Both the position numbers and the translations under genes were made by a program. Shown here one piece after another: positions 9,574-51,792 of a stretch of 64,000 bases of DNA; within the stretch, counting starts at the first letter, position 1, and every line of letters begins with the position of its first letter. The DNA is taken from positions 1,066,375-1,130,374 of the forward strand of contig OZ245335.1 of assembly GCA_965226235.1 (NCBI GenBank), written 5' to 3'. The notes below the pieces were generated by a model. The model had not been told where the DNA came from and searched no databases. It saw nothing but the letters and a program-made list of their open reading frames with translations. This DNA comes from Candidatus Oxydemutatoraceae bacterium (lineage in GTDB: Bacteria > Pseudomonadota > Gammaproteobacteria > Poriferisulfidales > Oxydemutatoraceae).

Positions 9574-9601
9574 AAAAAATGATCCCCCACTGGGAGGGAT
9601 C
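9571..9601 (-). terminator. Intrinsic terminator on the minus strand: stem-loop GATCCCTCCCAGTGGGGGATC followed by ATTTTTTATT
   Basis: An 8-bp GC-rich stem (one G-U pair), a 5-nt loop and a U-run, ~110 nt downstream of the predicted minus-strand start. Confidence 0.6.
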
Positions 9602-9680
9602 TGGTCGCATTGAAAGCGGCGCCTGCGAAGCCAATGGCTTCTTGGTATGAAAAGCCTGATAGGCCTTGGTCAGTTACACT
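9571..9680. ncRNA. tracrRNA: tracrRNA locus. The anti-repeat at 9658-9680 matches 23 nt of the CRISPR repeat with 1 mismatch, but the strand is unresolved. Minus strand: ~110-nt RNA with its own promoter and terminator. Plus strand: anti-repeat with canonical Cas9 geometry, but the tail overlaps the cas9 start.
   Basis: Plus strand 9658-9680 reads GATAGGCCTTGGTCAGTTACACT, the reverse complement of the first 23 nt of the repeat AGTGTAACTGACCAAGACCTATC apart from one mismatch. Promoter and terminator signals are listed as separate features. Confidence 0.55.
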
Positions 9681-9687
9681 GGCTGAG

Positions 9688-9716
9688 AATATAGCACGGG
9701 AGCGAGAGTGAGTCAA
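9688..9716 (-). promoter_or_regulatory. Sigma70-like promoter on the minus strand. The -35 TTGACT (9711-9716) and -10 TATATT (9688-9693) are separated by 17 bp, with the predicted start at 9680, the first base of the repeat-like segment. It overlaps the cas9 start codon in antisense.
   Basis: Hexamers and spacing read directly from the sequence. Confidence 0.5.
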
Positions 9717-12700
9717 AAGATTCTGGGACTGGATTTAGGAACCAATTCGGTTGGGTGGGCTTTGCTTGAGGGCAGAGGCGGCAAGCCACGGGAAATTATC
9801 GATGTCGGGGTTCGTATATTCAATGAAGCCATTGACAGCAAAAATAAAACACCGAAGAACGCGCAAAGAAGGCAGGCGCGTTTGGCAAGAAGGGTTTTAC
9901 AAAGACGAGCGCGCCGCAAGAGAAAAATGCTGTCTCTTCTGGTCAAGCAGGGGTTTTTGCCGCACAAGGCCCTGTCTTCGACCAACCTCGAAGGTATTTT
10001 GCATGAGCTTGGCGATCCTTATGAACTCAGGGCACGGGCACTGAATGACAGATTGTCTGAACACGAGTTGGGGCGCGTATTTTTTCATCTGGTACAAAGA
10101 CGGGGCTTCCTGAGCAACAAGAAAACGTTGTTGGGCGACATGGCCGATGACCCGGATGTAAAAGAAATACTGCAACAGGACGACAAACCTGATAACCAGA
10201 GCGATTCCGATGAGGAAAAAAAGAAGAATAAGGAAGAGAGTGAGTTCAAGCGGCATATATCCGAATTGAGAAACAAGATAGAAGCATCGGGTGCCAGAAC
10301 GCTGGGTGAGTATCTTCATAAGCATCGTAAAAACAACCTTAAACGCAATCGTTCTCATGCAGGCGAGTACGAGTATCTGAGAACAGATCGTCGCATGTAT
10401 CAGGAGGAGTTCGATAAGATCGTTAAAGCACAACGAAGATTGGGTGCCTCGTTACCTCAAGAGACTGTTGAGGCTGAGTTGCACAAGATCATATTTTTCC
10501 AGAGGCCTCTGAAATTCCGTTCCGATCGGGTAGGCAAATGCACCTTGGAACTTGGGAAAAACCGCGCGCGCATGGGGAGACTGGAGGCGCAGCGGTTCCG
10601 CTATTTGCAGGACATCAATCATCTGAAATATCGAGACATTGATGATTCTGAAAGGTCTGTAGGTGACAATGACCGGACGAAGTTGAAGGAATTGTTTGAG
10701 ACCGTTGAGAAGCCTACTTTCAGCAAAATAAAAAAAGTGCTGGGATTGAGCAAGGGGGTCAAGCTGAATCTGGAAGAGTATGGAACGAAAAAGCTGAAAG
10801 GCAACACGACTGCTTGCAGAATCAGAAAGGTTTATTCCGGGTGGGATGAGTTGAGCGCCGAGCAGCAAAAAAAGCTGGTTGAAGACCTGATTACGATCAA
10901 GAAAAAAAGCGTCTTGAAGAAACGCTTGATGAACCATTGGCGGTTCAGTAAGGAATCGACTGTCAATCTTTGTCTGATAGAGCTTGAGCCGGGGCATTCC
11001 AACCATAGCTTAAAGGCGATTGACAGAATATTGCCCTTCCTGGAGAAAGGGGAAATCTATTCCGACGCTCGGGAGAGTGCCGGGTATGGCTATGAGCAGG
11101 TGCAGCAAGATAGTCGGGAAACATTGGGAGAGCCGCCTGCAATACCCAACCCCATCGTCAGCAGGGGGCTCAGCGAGTTGCGCCGTGTAGTCAACGCCAT
11201 CATTGCCGAGTATGGCAAGCCCGATATCATCCGAATAGAAATGGCGCGTGATTTGGAAATGAACACTAAAAAGTACAAGCAGTATCAGAAGCAGATAAAC
11301 GCCAACTATAAAGCGAACGAGGAAGCGGCAGAAGAGTACGGGAAAGTAGCACGAGCCAACCCGCACTTGCGACTGAGAGACGAGGCTTCACGCGATGACA
11401 AAATTCGTTACCGGTTGTGGAAAGACCAGGATTGTCGATGCGTGTACAGCGGCCGGTCAATAGGGGGGCATGAGCTTTTCAGTCCCGAAGTGGAAATCGA
11501 CCATATCGTTCCCTATAGCCAATCACTGGATGATTCGTACATGAACAAGGTTGTTTGCCTGACGAAGGAAAATCGCTTCAAGGGACAGAGAACCCCAGTC
11601 GATGCGTTTGGTGGCAATGCAGAAAAGTGGCAGCAAATACGAGGAACGATAGAGAAATGGGGGAAGCCGTTGGCATCCAAGAAGAATCGTTTCTATTTGA
11701 CTGCTGAACAGGTAGAGCAAAGGGGGTTTGCTTCAAGACAGTTGAATGATACGCGTTATATCAGCAAGGAAGCGCAGGAGTATGTGCGTCAGTTGGGCGC
11801 GGATGTAAGTGTTACCAAGGGAGCTACCGTTGCCTTGCTCAGACGTCAGTGGGGGTTGAATCGTATTTTGTCTTCCGATGGTGGAAAGAATCGGGCAGAT
11901 CATCGGCATCATGCTGTTGACGCGGTTGTCATCGCGTCGATAGATCGCGGGATCCACCAAAGGCTCGTAAAAAGCGCACAGGAAGTCGAGCGGCAAGGAA
12001 GTGAGCTTGCCACGCGCAGGCTGGTGCTGGATATGCCTTATCCCGAGTTGAGGGATGAAATCGAGGACAAGTTAAACCGAGTTATTGTGTCGCATGATCC
12101 GCAGCGTAAGGTTTCCGGGGCTCTACACAAGGGTAAGGGGCTGGGCTTCAAAAAAGGGATTGGCTTGATCACCAGAAAGCATCTTGACAGTGAAATTACG
12201 TCTAAGCAGGTAAAAAATATTGTCGATCCGGTTGTCCGGGGTCAAGTCGAGGATCATCTTATGCAATATGGCGGCTCGCCAAAGATCGCATTTGCCGAGG
12301 ATGTTATTGTGCGGCATAAGAATGGCAGGACGCCGATCAGGCGAGTACGGGTTGTTCAGTCCAAAACGACGTTCGAAAAGCTTGAGAGTGGTAAGTACAG
12401 CAAGTTTGGCGTGAAAAATAAAGATGGTGAGGTTTTTAAGTGGATGGATTATGGCAACACTCATCACGTCGAAATTCTCCAGAGCAAAAAGGATACGGGT
12501 AAAATCAAGGGCGAGTTCGTTACCACAATGGAGGCAGCGAAAAGGGCAAGAAGAAACAGAACTCGGTCATTGGTCAGAACCGATCATGGAGAAGAATGGA
12601 GGCTCTTGATGGTGTTGCACATAAACAACCTGGTGAGTGTGAAGGTGAACGATTGCAGACAGATTTACAGAGTGCAGAAGCTTAGTAAAACCAGGAACAG

Positions 12701-12842
12701 CATAACCCTGAGGCTGCATACGGCGGCGACGCTGGAAAACAAGGATGAAAAAGGGATCGAGTTGAGAATCAACCCAGAGAATTTTGAGAAACATAAGCCG
12801 AAGTTGTTGCAGGTTAACGCGATTGGAAAATTATTGTCGTGA
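9708..12842 (+). CDS. cas9: Cas9, type II-C size class (1044 aa), GTG start
   Basis: N-terminal RuvC-I ILGLDLGTNSVGWA, HNH motif EIDHIVPYSQSLDDSYMNKVVCLTKENRFKGQRTP and RuvC-III HHAVDAVVIA. A GGGAG Shine-Dalgarno lies 7 nt upstream of the GTG. It overlaps cas1 by 4 bp. Confidence 0.95.
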   Translation: MSQKILGLDLGTNSVGWALLEGRGGKPREIIDVGVRIFNEAIDSKNKTPKNAQRRQARLARRVLQRRARRKRKMLSLLVKQGFLPHKALSSTNLEGILHELGDPYELRARALNDRLSEHELGRVFFHLVQRRGFLSNKKTLLGDMADDPDVKEILQQDDKPDNQSDSDEEKKKNKEESEFKRHISELRNKIEASGARTLGEYLHKHRKNNLKRNRSHAGEYEYLRTDRRMYQEEFDKIVKAQRRLGASLPQETVEAELHKIIFFQRPLKFRSDRVGKCTLELGKNRARMGRLEAQRFRYLQDINHLKYRDIDDSERSVGDNDRTKLKELFETVEKPTFSKIKKVLGLSKGVKLNLEEYGTKKLKGNTTACRIRKVYSGWDELSAEQQKKLVEDLITIKKKSVLKKRLMNHWRFSKESTVNLCLIELEPGHSNHSLKAIDRILPFLEKGEIYSDARESAGYGYEQVQQDSRETLGEPPAIPNPIVSRGLSELRRVVNAIIAEYGKPDIIRIEMARDLEMNTKKYKQYQKQINANYKANEEAAEEYGKVARANPHLRLRDEASRDDKIRYRLWKDQDCRCVYSGRSIGGHELFSPEVEIDHIVPYSQSLDDSYMNKVVCLTKENRFKGQRTPVDAFGGNAEKWQQIRGTIEKWGKPLASKKNRFYLTAEQVEQRGFASRQLNDTRYISKEAQEYVRQLGADVSVTKGATVALLRRQWGLNRILSSDGGKNRADHRHHAVDAVVIASIDRGIHQRLVKSAQEVERQGSELATRRLVLDMPYPELRDEIEDKLNRVIVSHDPQRKVSGALHKGKGLGFKKGIGLITRKHLDSEITSKQVKNIVDPVVRGQVEDHLMQYGGSPKIAFAEDVIVRHKNGRTPIRRVRVVQSKTTFEKLESGKYSKFGVKNKDGEVFKWMDYGNTHHVEILQSKKDTGKIKGEFVTTMEAAKRARRNRTRSLVRTDHGEEWRLLMVLHINNLVSVKVNDCRQIYRVQKLSKTRNSITLRLHTAATLENKDEKGIELRINPENFEKHKPKLLQVNAIGKLLS

Positions 12843-13738
12843 TAAAACGTGTCGTCGATGTAAGCAGCGCCAGCACGTTAAGGCTGGAGAACAAACAACT
12901 GGTCATTGAACAGGGCTTTTCTCAAGCAGCGAGAGTGTCACTGGAAGATTTGGGCATCCTGATACTGCAACACCCTGCGATCACTATTACTCAACCTGTC
13001 TTGAGAGAATGCCAAAGAAATAATGCTGCTGTCGTTTTGTGCGATGAACGCCACCTGCCTACATCGGTTATTCTGCCCTTGATGACGGGGAACTCTCTGC
13101 ATAGCAAAATCATCAGGCAGCAGATGGCAGCCAGCAAATCAAGGGAAAAAAGGGTTTGGCAACAGATTATAAGACACAAGATACGTGCTCAGATCAGGCT
13201 ACTGGCAAGACAAGAGAAGCCTACGAAAGCGCTGGAGTTGCTTTTTCAGAGAGTCAGGTCAGGAGATCCGGACAACTGTGAGGCTCAGGCCGCGCAAAAA
13301 TACTGGCCCCTGTTGTTTGGTTCCGGCTTTCGCCGGAACCAAACGGCCGACGGGATGAACGCATTGTTGAACTACGGTTATGCGATTATGCGAGCGATGT
13401 TAGCCAGAGCTGTTGTGGGCGCAGGACTGCATCCCGCATTGGGTGTGCACCATAGGAACCAGTATAACGGCCTGAATTTGGCTGACGACTTGATGGAACC
13501 TCTTAGGCCTTGGGTTGACGAAGTAGTCCTGAAACTAGCTGGAGAGAACAACCTGACTGTCAATCGTGAATCCAAGAAATGTCTGTTGGCGCTACTTTTT
13601 TCCCTAGTGATATGGAAGAAGAAATCCTTGCCCTTGATGTCCTGTAGTCATAGCCTGGTGGCTGATTTCAAGAGAATGCTGGGTGGAGACCAATCCTTTT
13701 TTGATTATCCGGTGTTATCAGAGGGTTCGGTGCAATAA
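12839..13738 (+). CDS. cas1: Cas1 integrase
   Basis: NALLNYGYAIMRA...GVHHRNQYNGLNLADDLMEPLRP motifs with conserved acidic and His residues. The length (299 aa) is typical of type II Cas1. Confidence 0.93.
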   Translation: MIKRVVDVSSASTLRLENKQLVIEQGFSQAARVSLEDLGILILQHPAITITQPVLRECQRNNAAVVLCDERHLPTSVILPLMTGNSLHSKIIRQQMAASKSREKRVWQQIIRHKIRAQIRLLARQEKPTKALELLFQRVRSGDPDNCEAQAAQKYWPLLFGSGFRRNQTADGMNALLNYGYAIMRAMLARAVVGAGLHPALGVHHRNQYNGLNLADDLMEPLRPWVDEVVLKLAGENNLTVNRESKKCLLALLFSLVIWKKKSLPLMSCSHSLVADFKRMLGGDQSFFDYPVLSEGSVQ

Positions 13739-13886: not shown

Positions 13887-14216
13887 ATGGCTTTTGGTGG
13901 CCTAAATACTTTGTGGCTAATCGTGCTATTTGATTTACCTACGGATACCAAGACAGCACGTAAAAGGTACGTAAATTTCCGAAAGCACTTGCTTTCGGAC
14001 GGTTTTACGATGATGCAGTATTCGGTTTACATGCGACATAGCGCCAGTGAGGAAAACGCTCAGGTGCACCGTAACCGTGTCAAACAGTTTTTACCGCCTG
14101 AGGGAGAGGTCCGGATGATCAAGATCACCGACAAGCAGTTTTCAAAAATAGAGGTTTTCTACGGCAAAAAACGTGTTCCTATTGAACCAGCCCCCAGCCA
14201 ATTGCAATTACTCTGA
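13887..14216 (+). CDS. cas2: Cas2
   Basis: LIVLFDLPTDTKTARKRYVNFRKHLLSDGFTMMQYSVY closely resembles type II Cas2 (FDMPTDT...RKFLL...QFSVY). Confidence 0.9.
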   Translation: MAFGGLNTLWLIVLFDLPTDTKTARKRYVNFRKHLLSDGFTMMQYSVYMRHSASEENAQVHRNRVKQFLPPEGEVRMIKITDKQFSKIEVFYGKKRVPIEPAPSQLQLL

Positions 14217-14264
14217 ACGAACTTCTACCAAAAGTTCTTTATTTTCAATGCGTTGTGTTGGGAA

Positions 14265-15435
14265 TAGTGTAACTGACCAAGACCTATCCGCAAATCACAA
14301 TCCCATTCAGCCGACATATAGAATACGTCCGCGAGTGTAACTGACCAAGACCTATCCGCAAATCACAATACGTATTACGGTGTAGGGTGAGTCGGATAAG
14401 AGTGTAACTGACCAAGACCTATCCGCAAATCACAATTGCCGAAGCTGCCTGTTGATAAATTCAGAGAGTGTAACTGACCAAGACCTATCCGCAAATCACA
14501 ATGCCCGTGGGGGCCGGTCCAGTCTGCTGACAAGTGTAACTGACCAAGACCTATCCGCAAATCACAATCGTTCACCCTGCGTGGCTCATCGTACCTGTAG
14601 TGTAACTGACCAAGACCTATCCGCAAATCACAATCAGTGGGTAGACTGGCATGAAAGGCAAAACTATAGTGTAACTGACCAAGACCTATCCGCAAATCAC
14701 AATCAGCGTAACCTTGAGCCCGCGTTCGCCTCCGAGTGTAACTGACCAAGACCTATCCGCAAATCACAATAGGCAAGAGATAGACCGCCTGATCGGAGAA
14801 AGTGTAACTGACCAAGACCTATCCGCAAATCACAATCCGGATTCAAGCGAGTCTCTATCGACAAACAGTGTAACTGACCAAGACCTATCCGCAAATCACA
14901 ATCCGTAGTCCCGCCAACCAATATAGACTTGCAGTGTAACTGACCAAGACCTATCCGCAAATCACAATAGTTCGGTGATTGGTGGGCTTAGGGTGAAAAG
15001 TGTAACTGACCAAGACCTATCCGCAAATCACAATTCAGATGGCAACTGCGAGATATGCGCAAAAGTGTAACTGACCAAGACCTATCCGCAAATCACAATC
15101 GGTGCTGACAACGCATGCCTGCCACACGTAGTGTAACTGACCAAGACCTATCCGCAAATCACAATCTTAATGTGGTAGCAAATCATCCCTTCCCTTAGTG
15201 TAACTGACCAAGACCTATCCGCAAATCACAATCATGGCGTGCTTTACGATCTCACGCGGATAAGTGTAACTGACCAAGACCTATCCGCAAATCACAATGA
15301 AGCTGTAACTGCTGCACTTCAGATGGCGGGATAAGTGTAACTGACCAAGACCTATCCGCAAATCACAATTCGATCTCTGTTGCCTCAACAAGCACGGTCA
15401 AGTGTAACTGACCAAGACCTATCCGCAAATCACAA
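14265..15435. CRISPR. CRISPR array of 18 identical 36-bp repeats (AGTGTAACTGACCAAGACCTATCCGCAAATCACAAT) and 17 spacers of 29-35 bp, mostly 30. Only the last base of the last repeat differs (T to C).
   Basis: Repeats counted directly, with starts at 14265, 14333, 14400, 14466 ... 15400. The transcribed strand is not determinable from sequence alone. Confidence 0.97.
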
Positions 15436-15499
15436 CCGTCTTTAGCCACGGTGTATCGACCATGAAGCCAGGCGGGACTTTATCCAAGAGTGGTTTCAA

Positions 15500-15645
15500 T
15501 CTTTGTGTTCTTTGATGGTACATAGCCATTAAACTATTATATATTCAAAATATGTTCAAAGGATTTTTTAGTTCTTGTGCATATACATGGTCTATTGCCA
15601 TTCAAATCAATGCAATTCAAAATCAGGATACGGATGATTCAATCA
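15500..15645. promoter_or_regulatory. AT-rich leader-like block abutting the cas-distal end of the array, with four TTCAAA-containing direct motifs
   Basis: A strongly AT-rich ~150 bp containing tattcaaaat, tgttcaaagg, cattcaaatc and aattcaaaat. No ORFs lie here. Confidence 0.35.
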
Positions 15646-16135
15646 CTCGAGAGCGAGCGCAATATACAAGGCAGGAGGATCGCGCGTTTGGCCCGAACGT
15701 GGCGGCTTTAACGGGCCAAGTCATCTGAGCGGCGGGCAGGCTGTCGACGACGAAGACAACATGAGCTGGTGCGGCCGACGTGGACTACCGGGTCAGGACC
15801 CGTACATCAATGCATCGATCCGGTCGGCGATCTTTTGTGCGGATTCTCGAAATTTCTCGACAGTCCAGCCGGCCACCTAGCCTTCGGTAACACCGTTAAG
15901 CCGAGCATGGTTGGCGAGGCGTTTGGTGAGCGAGGGATGCAGCATTAGTTCTTGCTCGGCGGCGGTGATAAAGCAGTTCCACAACATTCCCTGCAACTCT
16001 TTTTGCATGAGCATTTCAGTTCCATTTTGTTCCCACTCATTCTCACTTTTGCCAGTAAGGTGTGAGATCAAATCGAAAACTACTAAAGATCCGCCAATTT
16101 TCAGTAAAGGGATACAGTTCATCCAAATACCTAAC

Positions 16136-17617
16136 CTACCGCAAACCAGAAAGCACCTCGCGAAAACTGTTGAGACCAGCTTCAAGGTTCTCAATGATCT
16201 CTTCGGCAAGATCGTTAGGCTCGGGCAGGTTGTCCAGATCGGTCAGGTTCTTGTCCTTGAGCCAGAAGATGTCCAGGCTGGTCTTGCCGCGCGCGCTGAT
16301 CTCCTCGTAGCTGTAGCTGCGCCAACGGCCTTCCGGTGCGTCCTTTTCGTCATAGGTCGCCTTGCGCTGATGTCGGTTCTGCGGGTTGTAGCAGTTGATG
16401 AAGTCCGACAGATCCTCGAAGCGCATCGGCTTCTTCTTCAGCGTATGGTGAATGTTGGTGCGGTAGTCGTAGTACCAGACCTGCTTTGTCCAGGGATTCG
16501 GGTTGGCTTCGTGGTTGTCGAAGAAGATCACATTGGCCTTGACTCCTTGCGCGTAAAACACGCCGGTCGGCAAGCGTAGGATGGTGTGCAGGTCCGTGTT
16601 GTCCAGCAGCTTCTTGCGGATCGTTTCACCGGCACCGCCTTCAAACAGCACGTTGTCGGGAACGACGACGGCAGCGCGGCCAGTGGTCTTGAGCAGCGTG
16701 CGGATGTGCTGCACGAAATTTAGCTGCTTGTTCGAGGTCGTCGCCCAGAAATCCTGCCGGTTATAGGTCAGGTCGTCGGTTTCCTGCTCGCCTTCCTCGT
16801 TCGTGAAGCTCATGGAGCTTTTCTTGCCGAAGGGCGGGTTCGCCAGCACATAGTCAAAGCGCCTTCCGGCATCGGCCACGAGCGAATCGTTTGGCAATAT
16901 GGGCACGCCGCCGTCGATCTCGCCGATGTTGTGCAGGAACATGTTCATCAGACACAGACGGCGTGTATTGGCGACGATCTCGTTGCCGTGAAACGCCTTG
17001 TGCTTCAGGAACGCCTTCTGCTTCTTGTCTAGGTTGAAGTTGTCCGGGTTGGTCATGAAGTCGTAGGCGGCGAGAAAGAAACCGCCCGTACCGCAGGCCG
17101 GGTCGGCGATGAGCGTACCCGGTTCGGGCCGTACGCATTCGACCATGGCGCGGATGAGAGCGCGGGGCGTGAAATACTGGCCGGCACCTGATTTGGTGTC
17201 TTCGGCATTCCGCTCCAGCAGGCCTTCGTAGATGTCGCCCTTGATATCCGCGCCCATGGTGACCCACTCTGTGTCGTCCACCATGTCGATGAGGCGGAAC
17301 AGCTTTGCCGGGTCTTGAATCTTGTTCTGGGCCTTGGTGAAGATATGGCCCAGCATGTCCTTCTTCGTACCGAGTTCACGCAGCAGAGCGATATAGTGGT
17401 TTTCGAGCTCCGCACCCCGCCTTGCTTTCAGGGTCTGCCAGTTGAATTTGGCTGGGATACCGACATCGCGGTTGTACGGGGGGTTGGCGTACTCGCCGGC
17501 CATCTTGAGGAAGATCAGATAGGTGAGTTGCTCCAGGTAGTCGCCATAGCTCACCCCGTCATCGCGCAGGGTGGTGCAGAAGCTCCAGACTTTGGAGACG
17601 ATGGGAGCGGTGTTCAT
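16136..17617 (-). CDS. hsdM: Type I restriction-modification N6-adenine methyltransferase subunit HsdM
   Basis: HsdM N-terminal domain and the LANPPFG catalytic motif. The reading frame is intact. Confidence 0.9.
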   Translation of the reverse strand: MNTAPIVSKVWSFCTTLRDDGVSYGDYLEQLTYLIFLKMAGEYANPPYNRDVGIPAKFNWQTLKARRGAELENHYIALLRELGTKKDMLGHIFTKAQNKIQDPAKLFRLIDMVDDTEWVTMGADIKGDIYEGLLERNAEDTKSGAGQYFTPRALIRAMVECVRPEPGTLIADPACGTGGFFLAAYDFMTNPDNFNLDKKQKAFLKHKAFHGNEIVANTRRLCLMNMFLHNIGEIDGGVPILPNDSLVADAGRRFDYVLANPPFGKKSSMSFTNEEGEQETDDLTYNRQDFWATTSNKQLNFVQHIRTLLKTTGRAAVVVPDNVLFEGGAGETIRKKLLDNTDLHTILRLPTGVFYAQGVKANVIFFDNHEANPNPWTKQVWYYDYRTNIHHTLKKKPMRFEDLSDFINCYNPQNRHQRKATYDEKDAPEGRWRSYSYEEISARGKTSLDIFWLKDKNLTDLDNLPEPNDLAEEIIENLEAGLNSFREVLSGLR

Positions 17618-19233
17618 GCGGAGGTGTTCTTCCCTTTGATCTGTTCAGCGAACGCCTCGCCTTGAGCGGTTCGGCGATAGCGCTGGTTTCGGCTATGCGG
17701 CTTGTCGGGGAGAGTCATTTCAACCAGTTCGGCCACAAGGGCGGGCCGCAAATAGACCGTGGCGAAGTGGCCGCGATGTTTCAGTTGCAGTGCCATTTGC
17801 AGTTCTACCCGGCTCATCTCTCCGGTGAGCGCAACTACCAGTTGCTCGACATGTGCGGTAACTTGGTCGGTCACTGGATCGGTCATTTGTGCGGTATACC
17901 GAATATCATCCTGCTTTATCAAATACTTATCTTGTGCGGCAACTTGGTCGGTCTCATGCTCGGTCGCCACGTTGGCCGCCCGCTCGTGCACCGGCAGCCG
18001 AACCAGAAACCAGGTTCGGTCCTCGTCGCTCTCGAAGACCGGCTCCGGGGAGCCGTTCTGCTGCATGGCTCGCAGAATCTTGGGGACCCCGGTTGACCTG
18101 CCCTCGGCCAACTCGAGTTCCTTGAGAAACTCTCCAATTCGACGATTGCGGTAGCGGCGGCTGACGGCTTGCCCGTTCTTGAAATCTTCCATGCGGATCG
18201 ATCGGTCGGCGCCCGGAAAGCTCAAGACCACCAGTTCTTCAGAGGTGATGTGCACTTCGACAGGTTCACGTTCTTCATATGAGCGGTGGTAGATCGCATT
18301 CACCAGTGCCTCTTCGATGGCACCAATGGGAAAGTTCCAGAATCGCTCCGCTTCGGGCTTGTGTGGATGCTTGACGACCGTTTCCTTCAGGTGGTTCCGT
18401 CCGATGTAGCTGATCGCCTCGCTGAGGATGATCGACAGGGGGCCGCGAAACTCCTTCTCCTCGAAATGGTCTCCGCCAGGGCCATCCGGAAACCAAACAA
18501 CATCAATCTGAGTTGCCGGAAAGAAGTCGTGCGGGCGGTCGTTAAAAAACAGCAAGCCGACGTTCTTGGGGAACATCGCTTCGGGAGGACCGCCGACGAT
18601 GTTCATGCGTTGACCCAGGCTCTCAATCGGGAGATCGACCGCCTCAGAGGCGAGGTCGCTGCCGATGTCGCGCAGGAATTCCTGGATAAGCCGATGCGAA
18701 AGGTCATCAAGCGAAGCCGTCTGGCGATACCTGTCATCAAAGGGCACGGTGGCGGCCAGGCTGAGCAACTCGCGTTCATCACGGCCTCTCGCACGGACCG
18801 TGCTTGTGTGTTTGCGAACGAAGTATGCCCACTCCGAGCGCCCCTTGGTGAGATTTACTCTGGCTTTGTAAGGACGGGTTTCACCGCCAGGTGCCCAGAG
18901 CACGAGTATGGTTCTGCCATCAATATCGTAGGTCCCCGTAAGCGGGTGGTAATAGGGCTGTATGGCCGAATTGCCCAGACTCAGCAGTTCCTTCTGGATC
19001 GCATCGATGGAATCCGGAGGAATGCCCTTGGGCGGCAGTACTGGGCGGCCGTCGCGCTCCTCGACCCCCAATACGACGTAACCGCCGCCCAGATTGTGGA
19101 AGTCGTTGGCGAAGGCGCAGATGGTGTACAACACACTCTGCGGATTCCAACCAGCCTTGTACTCGATGCGCTCGCCTTCAATGGTGCGCTGGCGAAGCAG
19201 GCGGTTGATGTTGATGGGAAGTTTGCCGGTCAT
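17614..19233 (-). CDS. AlbA_2 / divergent-AAA (Schlafen-like) DNA-binding protein with a C-terminal HTH, commonly annotated as RecG-like and often embedded in type I R-M loci
   Basis: N-terminal ...YKAGWNPQSV...GGGYVVLGVEE and a C-terminal RRYRNRRIGEFLKELELAEGRSTGVPKI region. It lies between hsdS and hsdM. Confidence 0.65.
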   Translation of the reverse strand: MTGKLPININRLLRQRTIEGERIEYKAGWNPQSVLYTICAFANDFHNLGGGYVVLGVEERDGRPVLPPKGIPPDSIDAIQKELLSLGNSAIQPYYHPLTGTYDIDGRTILVLWAPGGETRPYKARVNLTKGRSEWAYFVRKHTSTVRARGRDERELLSLAATVPFDDRYRQTASLDDLSHRLIQEFLRDIGSDLASEAVDLPIESLGQRMNIVGGPPEAMFPKNVGLLFFNDRPHDFFPATQIDVVWFPDGPGGDHFEEKEFRGPLSIILSEAISYIGRNHLKETVVKHPHKPEAERFWNFPIGAIEEALVNAIYHRSYEEREPVEVHITSEELVVLSFPGADRSIRMEDFKNGQAVSRRYRNRRIGEFLKELELAEGRSTGVPKILRAMQQNGSPEPVFESDEDRTWFLVRLPVHERAANVATEHETDQVAAQDKYLIKQDDIRYTAQMTDPVTDQVTAHVEQLVVALTGEMSRVELQMALQLKHRGHFATVYLRPALVAELVEMTLPDKPHSRNQRYRRTAQGEAFAEQIKGKNTSA

Positions 19234-27024: not shown

Positions 27025-27101
27025 TGGTGGGCCTGGCAGGATTCGAACCTGCGACCAAAGGATTATGAGTCCCCTGCTCTGACCGGCTGAGCTACAGGCC
27101 C
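27025..27101 (-). tRNA. ileX: tRNA with CAT anticodon, most similar to tRNA-Ile2 (lysidine, ileX-like); CCA is encoded
   Basis: Cloverleaf GGGCCUG...CAGGCCC-A-CCA with anticodon loop CUCAUAA. It is highly similar to E. coli ileX, including the UGGUC variable loop, and sits immediately downstream of rpoD as ileX does in E. coli. Confidence 0.85.
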
Positions 27102-51719: not shown

Positions 51720-51792
51720 TGGCCAGAGGCGGAATCGAACCACCGACACGAGGATTTTCAGTCCCCTGCTCTACCGACTGAGCTATCTGGCC
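51720..51792 (-). tRNA. tRNA-Phe (GAA); CCA is not encoded
   Basis: A 73-nt cloverleaf GGCCAGAUAGCUCAGUCGGUAGAGCAGGGGACUGAAAAUCCUC...UCUGGCCA, very similar to E. coli tRNA-Phe. Confidence 0.9.

Follow-up and report, generated by a model that had tools for sequence, protein, structure and literature searches.

The 64,000-nt stretch of DNA analysed here, referred to as the window, contains a CRISPR-Cas locus whose cas operon consists of cas9, cas1 and cas2 alone (Table 1). Neither csn2 nor cas4 is present and, by gene content, the locus is therefore of type II-C. The cas9 product matches the TIGR01865 model and carries an N-terminal RuvC-I motif, and the Pfam domains HNH_4 (PF13395) and RuvC_III (PF18541) are present in its relatives, so that both the RuvC and the HNH nuclease of a Cas9 are accounted for. 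When compared with solved type II-C Cas9 structures the protein was found to be distant, with no chain aligning over more than about 750 of the 1044 residues and best scores of 283-233 bits. We take the 6jdq group of Cas9 chains, which are labelled only 'Cas9', to be NmeCas9. Exact look-ups of the window Cas2, in two start variants, and of HsdM returned no match. Upstream of cas9 lie a tracrRNA and a carbamoyltransferase gene, while the array is located downstream of cas2 and is followed by about 700 nt of non-coding DNA and then by hsdM. No recognisable gene was found between 15650 and 16135, a region with about 60% G+C over 15650-15874. Together, the CRISPR locus, hsdM and the adjoining Fic/AlbA_2 gene make up a defence island. 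Elsewhere in the window, tRNA genes at 27028-27101 and 51720-51792, both on the minus strand, are the sole matches to Rfam at gathering score.

Table 1. Features of the type II-C locus and its surroundings, in window coordinates
Feature	Position	Strand	Basis or remark
Terminator of tracrRNA	G+C-rich hairpin 9581-9601, T run 9574-9579	-	
tracrRNA, about 107 nt, predicted ends	9574-9680	-	promoter, anti-repeat, hairpins, terminator
Small hairpin of tracrRNA	about 9606-9618	-	
Nexus-like hairpin	9627-9641	-	
tracrRNA segment GCUUUUCAUAC	9645-9655	-	faces the repeat 5' end
tracrRNA upper-stem anti-repeat	9658-9680	-	
tracrRNA promoter, TTGACT-17 nt-TG-TATATT	9688-9716	-	10/12 matches, with TG
cas9	9708-12842	+	1044 aa, GTG start, RuvC-I motif at residues 6-18; TIGR01865, 665 bits
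cas1, type II (NMENI) subtype	12839-13738	+	PF01867; TIGR03639, 275 bits
cas2	13887-14216	+	PF09827; TIGR01573
Putative adaptation leader, cas2 stop to repeat 1, 49 nt	14217-14265	.	fixed length and conserved register
CRISPR array, 18 direct repeats of 36 nt and 17 spacers	14266-15436	- (crRNA sense)	crRNA-sense repeat ATTGTGATTTGCGGATAGGTCTTGGTCAGTTACACT
Repeat 1, putative newest repeat and insertion site	14266-14301	-	polarity of repeat decay in the family
Repeat 18, putative oldest and first transcribed ('extra') repeat	15401-15436	-	ancestral first base kept (G in crRNA sense, C at 15436)
AT-rich block with four TTCAAA	15500-15645	.	lineage-specific, probably outside the CRISPR system
hsdM, type I restriction-modification methylase	16136-17617	-	
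Fic/AlbA_2/HATPase_c_4 gene	17614-19233	-	

The array had been described before, by a reading of the sequence without comparison to relatives (hereafter the sequence-only reading), as 18 repeats of 36 nt. This count is confirmed, repeats 1-17 being identical and repeat 18 differing from them only in its final base (plus sense), which is C instead of T. The variant base, placed by that reading at 15435, is in fact at 15436, and the spacing between cas2 and repeat 1, given as 48 bp, amounts to 49 nt when counted from the cas2 stop at 14216.

Relatives of the locus were collected in two ways. A search with Cas9 provided three loci at 99%, 76% and 62% identity, the first of which is designated L001, and a scan of species-representative genomes provided a further 80 at 41-58% identity. 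Their hosts are mostly Methylococcales, Binatia, sponge symbionts and other environmental bacteria. The repeat pattern was not found in JGI metagenome contigs. Two Logan contigs (L085:1-2352 and L086:1-2348), with 99.8% identity to the window, run from cas1 and cas2 through the leader and a lone repeat, which ends in C, into the far flank of the window array, and their Cas2 variant is that of L001. A single-repeat ancestor and a deletion allele were considered for them; the single repeat most likely reflects the collapse of an array by the assembler as opposed to a real single-repeat allele, and the two contigs were not used as evidence.

The results from an energy scan of the whole 64-kb window for partners of the repeat indicate that a single site outside the array, 9658-9680, located 28 nt upstream of cas9, can pair with it. 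On the minus strand this anti-repeat reads AGTGTAACTGACCAAGGCCTATC, i.e., it has the same sense as the plus-strand repeat, and therefore it pairs only with a minus-strand transcript of the array. Three hairpins, a nexus-like one, a small one and that of the terminator, form in the RNA between the anti-repeat and the predicted 3' end, and this succession of anti-repeat, hairpins and terminator is that of a type II-C tracrRNA. No Rfam family matched it. The same element occurs at the same place and on the same strand in 42 related loci, in which the -35 hexamer, a TGnTATAAT box, the anti-repeat, an invariant GCTTTTCATACC, the nexus hairpin and the terminator with its T run are all kept. The stem of the nexus hairpin varies by compensation among the relatives, and compensatory changes were found in 8 of the 16 predicted tracrRNA pairs. 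In the window as well as in the 42 loci the -35 hexamer runs across the start codon of cas9, read in reverse complement, so that cas9 and the divergent tracrRNA have overlapping control sequences. A tracrRNA read from the plus strand into the 5' region of cas9 was rejected, since cas9 (start at 9708, followed by RuvC-I) begins 28 nt past the anti-repeat and leaves no room for a tail.

The 23-bp helix was compared among 39 distinct repeat/anti-repeat combinations; 98% of its positions pair, and 13 of the 23 pairs show compensatory changes. None of 500 shuffles performed as well, and sliding the partner by 1-3 columns reduced the pairing to 27-40.5%. G-U cells number 57 against 7 A-C cells, an excess expected if the minus-strand RNAs, rather than their complements, are the real molecules. 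Further along, immediately before the nexus hairpin, UCAUAC of the tracrRNA lies opposite the (G/A)UUGUGA with which the crRNA-sense repeat begins, which is the canonical geometry; the lower stem, UGUGA:UCAUA, is invariant and hence without covariation support. Judging from these sequences, the crRNAs are almost certainly minus-sense, transcription of the array running from 15436 in the direction of cas2. Given the pairing with a minus-strand tracrRNA, each crRNA would consist of a spacer followed by ATTGTGATTTGCGG..., and the proposed tracrRNA of about 107 nt would be transcribed on the minus strand, in divergence from cas9, with the anti-repeat at its 5' end pairing with the array transcript. 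Both the strand of the tracrRNA and the balance of G-U and A-C cells thus point to the inverted polarity of the Neisseria and Campylobacter systems, the arrays of which are transcribed opposite to the cas operon (PMC3737331).

The end at which spacers are inserted was approached through the decay of terminal repeats, counted in 37 complete related arrays of at least 4 repeats each. Variant repeats are found at the far end in 15 of the 37 arrays and on the cas2 side in one, compared with 14 of 670 internal repeats, and in one related array the variants form a gradient that rises towards the far end. This decay strips the outer 12 nt or so of the terminal repeat. The sole array of the family with a variant cas-side repeat (L019:13129-13750) is located 178 nt past cas9 at a locus devoid of cas1 and cas2. 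The DNA between cas2 and repeat 1 is also distinctive. Measured from the cas2 stop, it extends over 47-51 nt in 49 of 53 loci, and it is conserved in a fixed register, ..TCA(-20..-18)..TT(-13,-12)..GG.T(-4..-1), with 7 columns of at least 1 bit and a mean of 0.50 bit per column in the 30 nt next to the repeat. In the 37 arrays the far flank reaches 0.07 bit per column with no conserved column; its G+C content in the relatives equals that of the surrounding locus, the window being an outlier. A weak hairpin with a T run is present in the leader (14220-14246), and folding of the leader and of the DNA upstream of repeat 18 gave no structure exceeding shuffled controls. The role in integration that we propose for this leader is borrowed from experiments on type II-C in other systems (PMC6008519, PMC12477760).

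A further indication comes from the one base by which repeat 18 differs. It had been argued that the terminal repeat gives no orientation, which proves mistaken. In all of the approximately 50 related arrays, L001 included, the plus-sense repeat ends in CACAAC; judged by this comparison, C at 15436 is the ancestral base of the family, and T in repeats 1-17 is derived and confined to the window, so that repeat 18 is the informative, ancestral copy. If the copied repeat is the one at the cas2 end, a single change in it explains C in repeat 18 and T in the other 17; insertion at the far end would require a change and its reversal at one site. In crRNA sense, a G-to-A change at the first base of the repeat would have arisen on the leader side and been copied into 17 later repeats, leaving repeat 18 as it was. 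The derived A (window 14266-15400) loses the G-C pair that would close the lower stem beside the guide, and the tracrRNA has no change that compensates for it.

Repeat decay, a conserved leader of 47-51 nt and the ancestral base of repeat 18 all place the oldest repeat at the far end, and on these comparisons new spacers are very probably inserted on the cas2 side. In the proposed mechanism Cas1-Cas2 would insert them at repeat 1, beside the compact 49-nt leader, which is the downstream end of the transcription unit. It has been reported that in type II-C new spacers are added between cas2 and the array, at the repeat that is transcribed last (PMC12080349, PMC6008519), and that the first and oldest repeat is mutated in about 60% of type II-C arrays, mostly within its first 15 nt (PMC12080349). 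For Neisseria and Campylobacter, Chylinski et al. noted that the mutated terminal repeat predicts an orientation contrary to that in which the arrays were measured to be transcribed (PMC3737331).

The sequence-only reading had offered two accounts of the array, each of which is half wrong because each equates the end where transcription starts with the end where spacers are inserted. According to one of them, the AT-rich block at 15500-15645 is a leader from which the array is transcribed in the direction of cas2, repeat 18 being the site where new spacers are taken up. The direction of transcription is correct here, in agreement with the strand, promoter and terminator of the tracrRNA and with the G-U pattern, and the block does contain four TTCAAA motifs, no stretch of the window being richer in A+T. 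Between it and repeat 18, however, lie 63 nt of ordinary composition, and a leader at this end is contradicted by the absence of any conservation in the far flank of the 37 related arrays, by the decayed repeats found there in 15 of them, by the two mutations at one site that copying of repeat 18 would need, and by published type II-C insertions, which occur on the cas2 side (PMC6008519). Taken as a whole this account is very improbable. The other account placed a plus-strand promoter in each repeat (TGACCA ... CACAAT), with plus-sense crRNAs and new spacers at the cas2 end. Its insertion end is probably right, and a plus-sense promoter-like motif does exist, CTGACC-17-CACAAT with 8 of 12 matches in the window, although TGACCA itself stands at a spacing of 16 nt and not 17. 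The final T of the motif, however, is the base found only in the window; the approximately 50 related arrays have CACAAC and so lack the essential last T of a -10 hexamer. The likeness to the Neisseria promoter box also fails, since the motif has no TG extension and shows no TGnTAnnnT. Furthermore, plus-sense transcripts have the sense of the anti-repeat and could not pair with the conserved minus-strand tracrRNA, and a plus-strand tracrRNA would run into the cas9 coding sequence. In full, plus-strand transcription from the repeats is hardly credible.

With the minus strand accepted as the crRNA strand, the remaining question is where transcription starts. We lean towards repeat-embedded promoters on the crRNA strand (...GTTACACT), an assignment that follows from motif comparison. 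Each repeat would then carry at its 3' end a weak promoter, TTGCGG-16-TACACT, from which the following crRNA starts some 6-8 nt inside the spacer, and with such promoters, as in Neisseria and Campylobacter, no upstream leader promoter would be needed. Among the 39 distinct repeats the crRNA-sense end TACACT has T, A, A and T invariant at positions 31, 32, 34 and 36, and positions 33 and 35 vary solely towards TATAAT (TATACT or TACAAT). The decayed terminal repeats retain the TACACT end. The same conservation could equally come from pairing with the tracrRNA or from recognition by the integrase. Since the upstream flank is not conserved, the family has no conserved place for an external promoter, which also counts in favour of promoters within the repeats. 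The motif itself matches the consensus at 7 of 12 positions, below the 8 of 12 of the plus-sense motif in the window, and the bases preceding TACACT are AGT in the window and GGT in the family, so that the G of a TG extension is present and the T absent. The Neisseria box has the full TG extension (TGCTACAAT), unlike that of the window (AGTTACACT). Repeat-embedded promoters have been documented in type II-C, and in Neisseria transcription starts at the sixth base of the spacer (PMC12477760, PMC5965381).

It is also conceivable, if rather unlikely, that the strand and the insertion end are those proposed above while the pre-crRNA has its start outside the array and is subsequently processed by RNase III, the repeats not being promoters. 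Its start would be found in the AT-rich block, where a perfect -10 hexamer, TATAAT on the minus strand from 15541 to 15536, is directed into the array, or would be provided by read-through from hsdM, which lies upstream on the same strand with neither a terminator nor a significant structure found between it and the array. The weakness of the repeat motif, with its incomplete TG extension, is consistent with such an origin. The TATAAT hexamer, however, has no -35 (1 of 6 matches) and no TG, and DNA of 29% G+C easily yields hexamers of this kind; a promoter scan of 15437-15700 detected no minus-strand site reaching 9 of 12. Moreover, the far flank is unrelated and of ordinary G+C content in every relative, so that the family as a whole cannot rely on an external promoter. 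Promoters within the repeats are for these reasons the start sites that we favour.

The AT-rich block beyond the array is real. Its G+C content is 29%, compared with 54% for the window, and of all 146-nt stretches in the 64 kb it is the richest in A+T, with 0.03% of such stretches as low. The four TTCAAA that had been pointed out are present at 15544, 15555, 15601 and 15616; at least one 6-mer reached four copies in 25 of 2000 dinucleotide shuffles. It had been said to abut repeat 18, from which it is separated by the 63 nt mentioned above, of 51% G+C. A classical leader abuts the first repeat and is conserved among relatives; this block does neither, and it was found only in the window and in the two short contigs of the same population. 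No significant fold and no terminator were detected in it, and it contains two promoter-like sites directed away from the array. Two 11-mers, TGCCATTCAAA and TGCAATTCAAA, stand 15 nt apart at 15596-15621 within the block, and this pair could, by its sequence, be a candidate protein-binding site. The block is regarded as junction or intergenic DNA of the defence island, between the array and the restriction-modification gene, rather than as a CRISPR leader. Alternatively, the block with its TTCAAA and TGC(C/A)ATTCAAA direct repeats would be a lineage-specific control region that feeds or gates transcription into the old end of the array, an idea that we consider improbable; such a region might act as a promoter or as a platform for a nucleoid or regulatory protein. 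If true, the array would have two leaders at opposite ends, a 'transcription leader' and, apart from it, an 'adaptation leader'.

The 17 spacers of the window are 29-35 nt long, with 82% at 29-31 nt. The length is looser in L001 (26-39 nt, just 29% at 29-31 nt; array L001:14556-16493), and a range of 23-42 nt was found in L047 (array L047:14392-17026); in the remaining family 96% of 774 spacers measure 29-31 nt. A relaxed integrase ruler or the trimming of prespacers may be responsible for loose lengths, and the ruler may have loosened in the lineage of the window. Block duplications of spacers are present in the arrays of L075, L036, L082 and L037; thus spacers 3-7 of L075 recur as 8-12, and spacers 4-6 of L082 recur as 19, 21 and 22. 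No spacer is common to any two of the approximately 50 related arrays. Protospacers were found neither for the 44 spacers of the window and L001 in a phage collection nor for the 819 spacers of the family in the fetched loci.

Among characterized systems, the closest parallels are found in type II-C. The locus of Neisseria meningitidis (Zhang et al. 2013; PMC12477760; PMC3737331) likewise has cas9, cas1 and cas2 only, a 36-nt repeat that starts with (G/A)TTGT and ends in a TAnnnT box, a spacer norm of 30 nt, and an array downstream of cas2 that is transcribed towards cas2. In contrast to N. meningitidis, the tracrRNA of the window is located upstream of cas9 and divergent from it, with the -35 over the cas9 start codon, the match between repeat and anti-repeat is strong over 23 nt and not over the full 36, and the Cas9 is distant from the solved type II-C structures. 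In Campylobacter jejuni and Riemerella anatipestifer (Dugar 2013; Hooton & Connerton 2015; He 2018, PMC6008519) the old repeat is also at the far end, and R. anatipestifer likewise has its tracrRNA upstream of cas9; these species have other repeat families (47 nt in Riemerella). The 'extra repeat' of type II-C described by Feussner et al. (2025, PMC12080349) is, as proposed here for repeat 18, both the first transcribed and the oldest, and its counterpart is seen in the 15 of 37 related arrays with decay within the outer 12 nt or so; the single difference in the window, at base 1, is in keeping with this. The window departs from that description in that the change is carried by 17 repeats while the one that stands apart is ancestral and unmutated, and in that neither a terminator nor a guide-sequestering hairpin was found upstream. 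Type II-A systems (Streptococcus pyogenes, S. thermophilus) share a tracrRNA-dependent Cas9 and a short leader beside the first repeat that directs integration. In type II-A, however, the promoter is in the leader and transcription starts at the insertion end; in the window the two are at opposite ends, and csn2 is absent.

In toto, we consider it likely that the locus is a canonical type II-C CRISPR-Cas9 system with the inverted polarity known for the subtype; it is an uncharacterised member of an already known type of system. The dilemma in which the sequence-only reading ended is resolved by a known property of type II-C, namely that transcription start and spacer insertion are at opposite ends of the array. 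The conflict between the old end and the start of transcription was noticed for Neisseria and Campylobacter in 2013 and is now textbook knowledge for type II-C, so the result has little significance beyond correct annotation. It does illustrate how comparison with relatives can polarise a terminal repeat that differs by one base. At the same time, the guide orientation, the tracrRNA and a probable leader are defined for an uncharacterised clade of Cas9 proteins of about 1040 aa, which is common among environmental bacteria, methanotrophs and sponge symbionts included.
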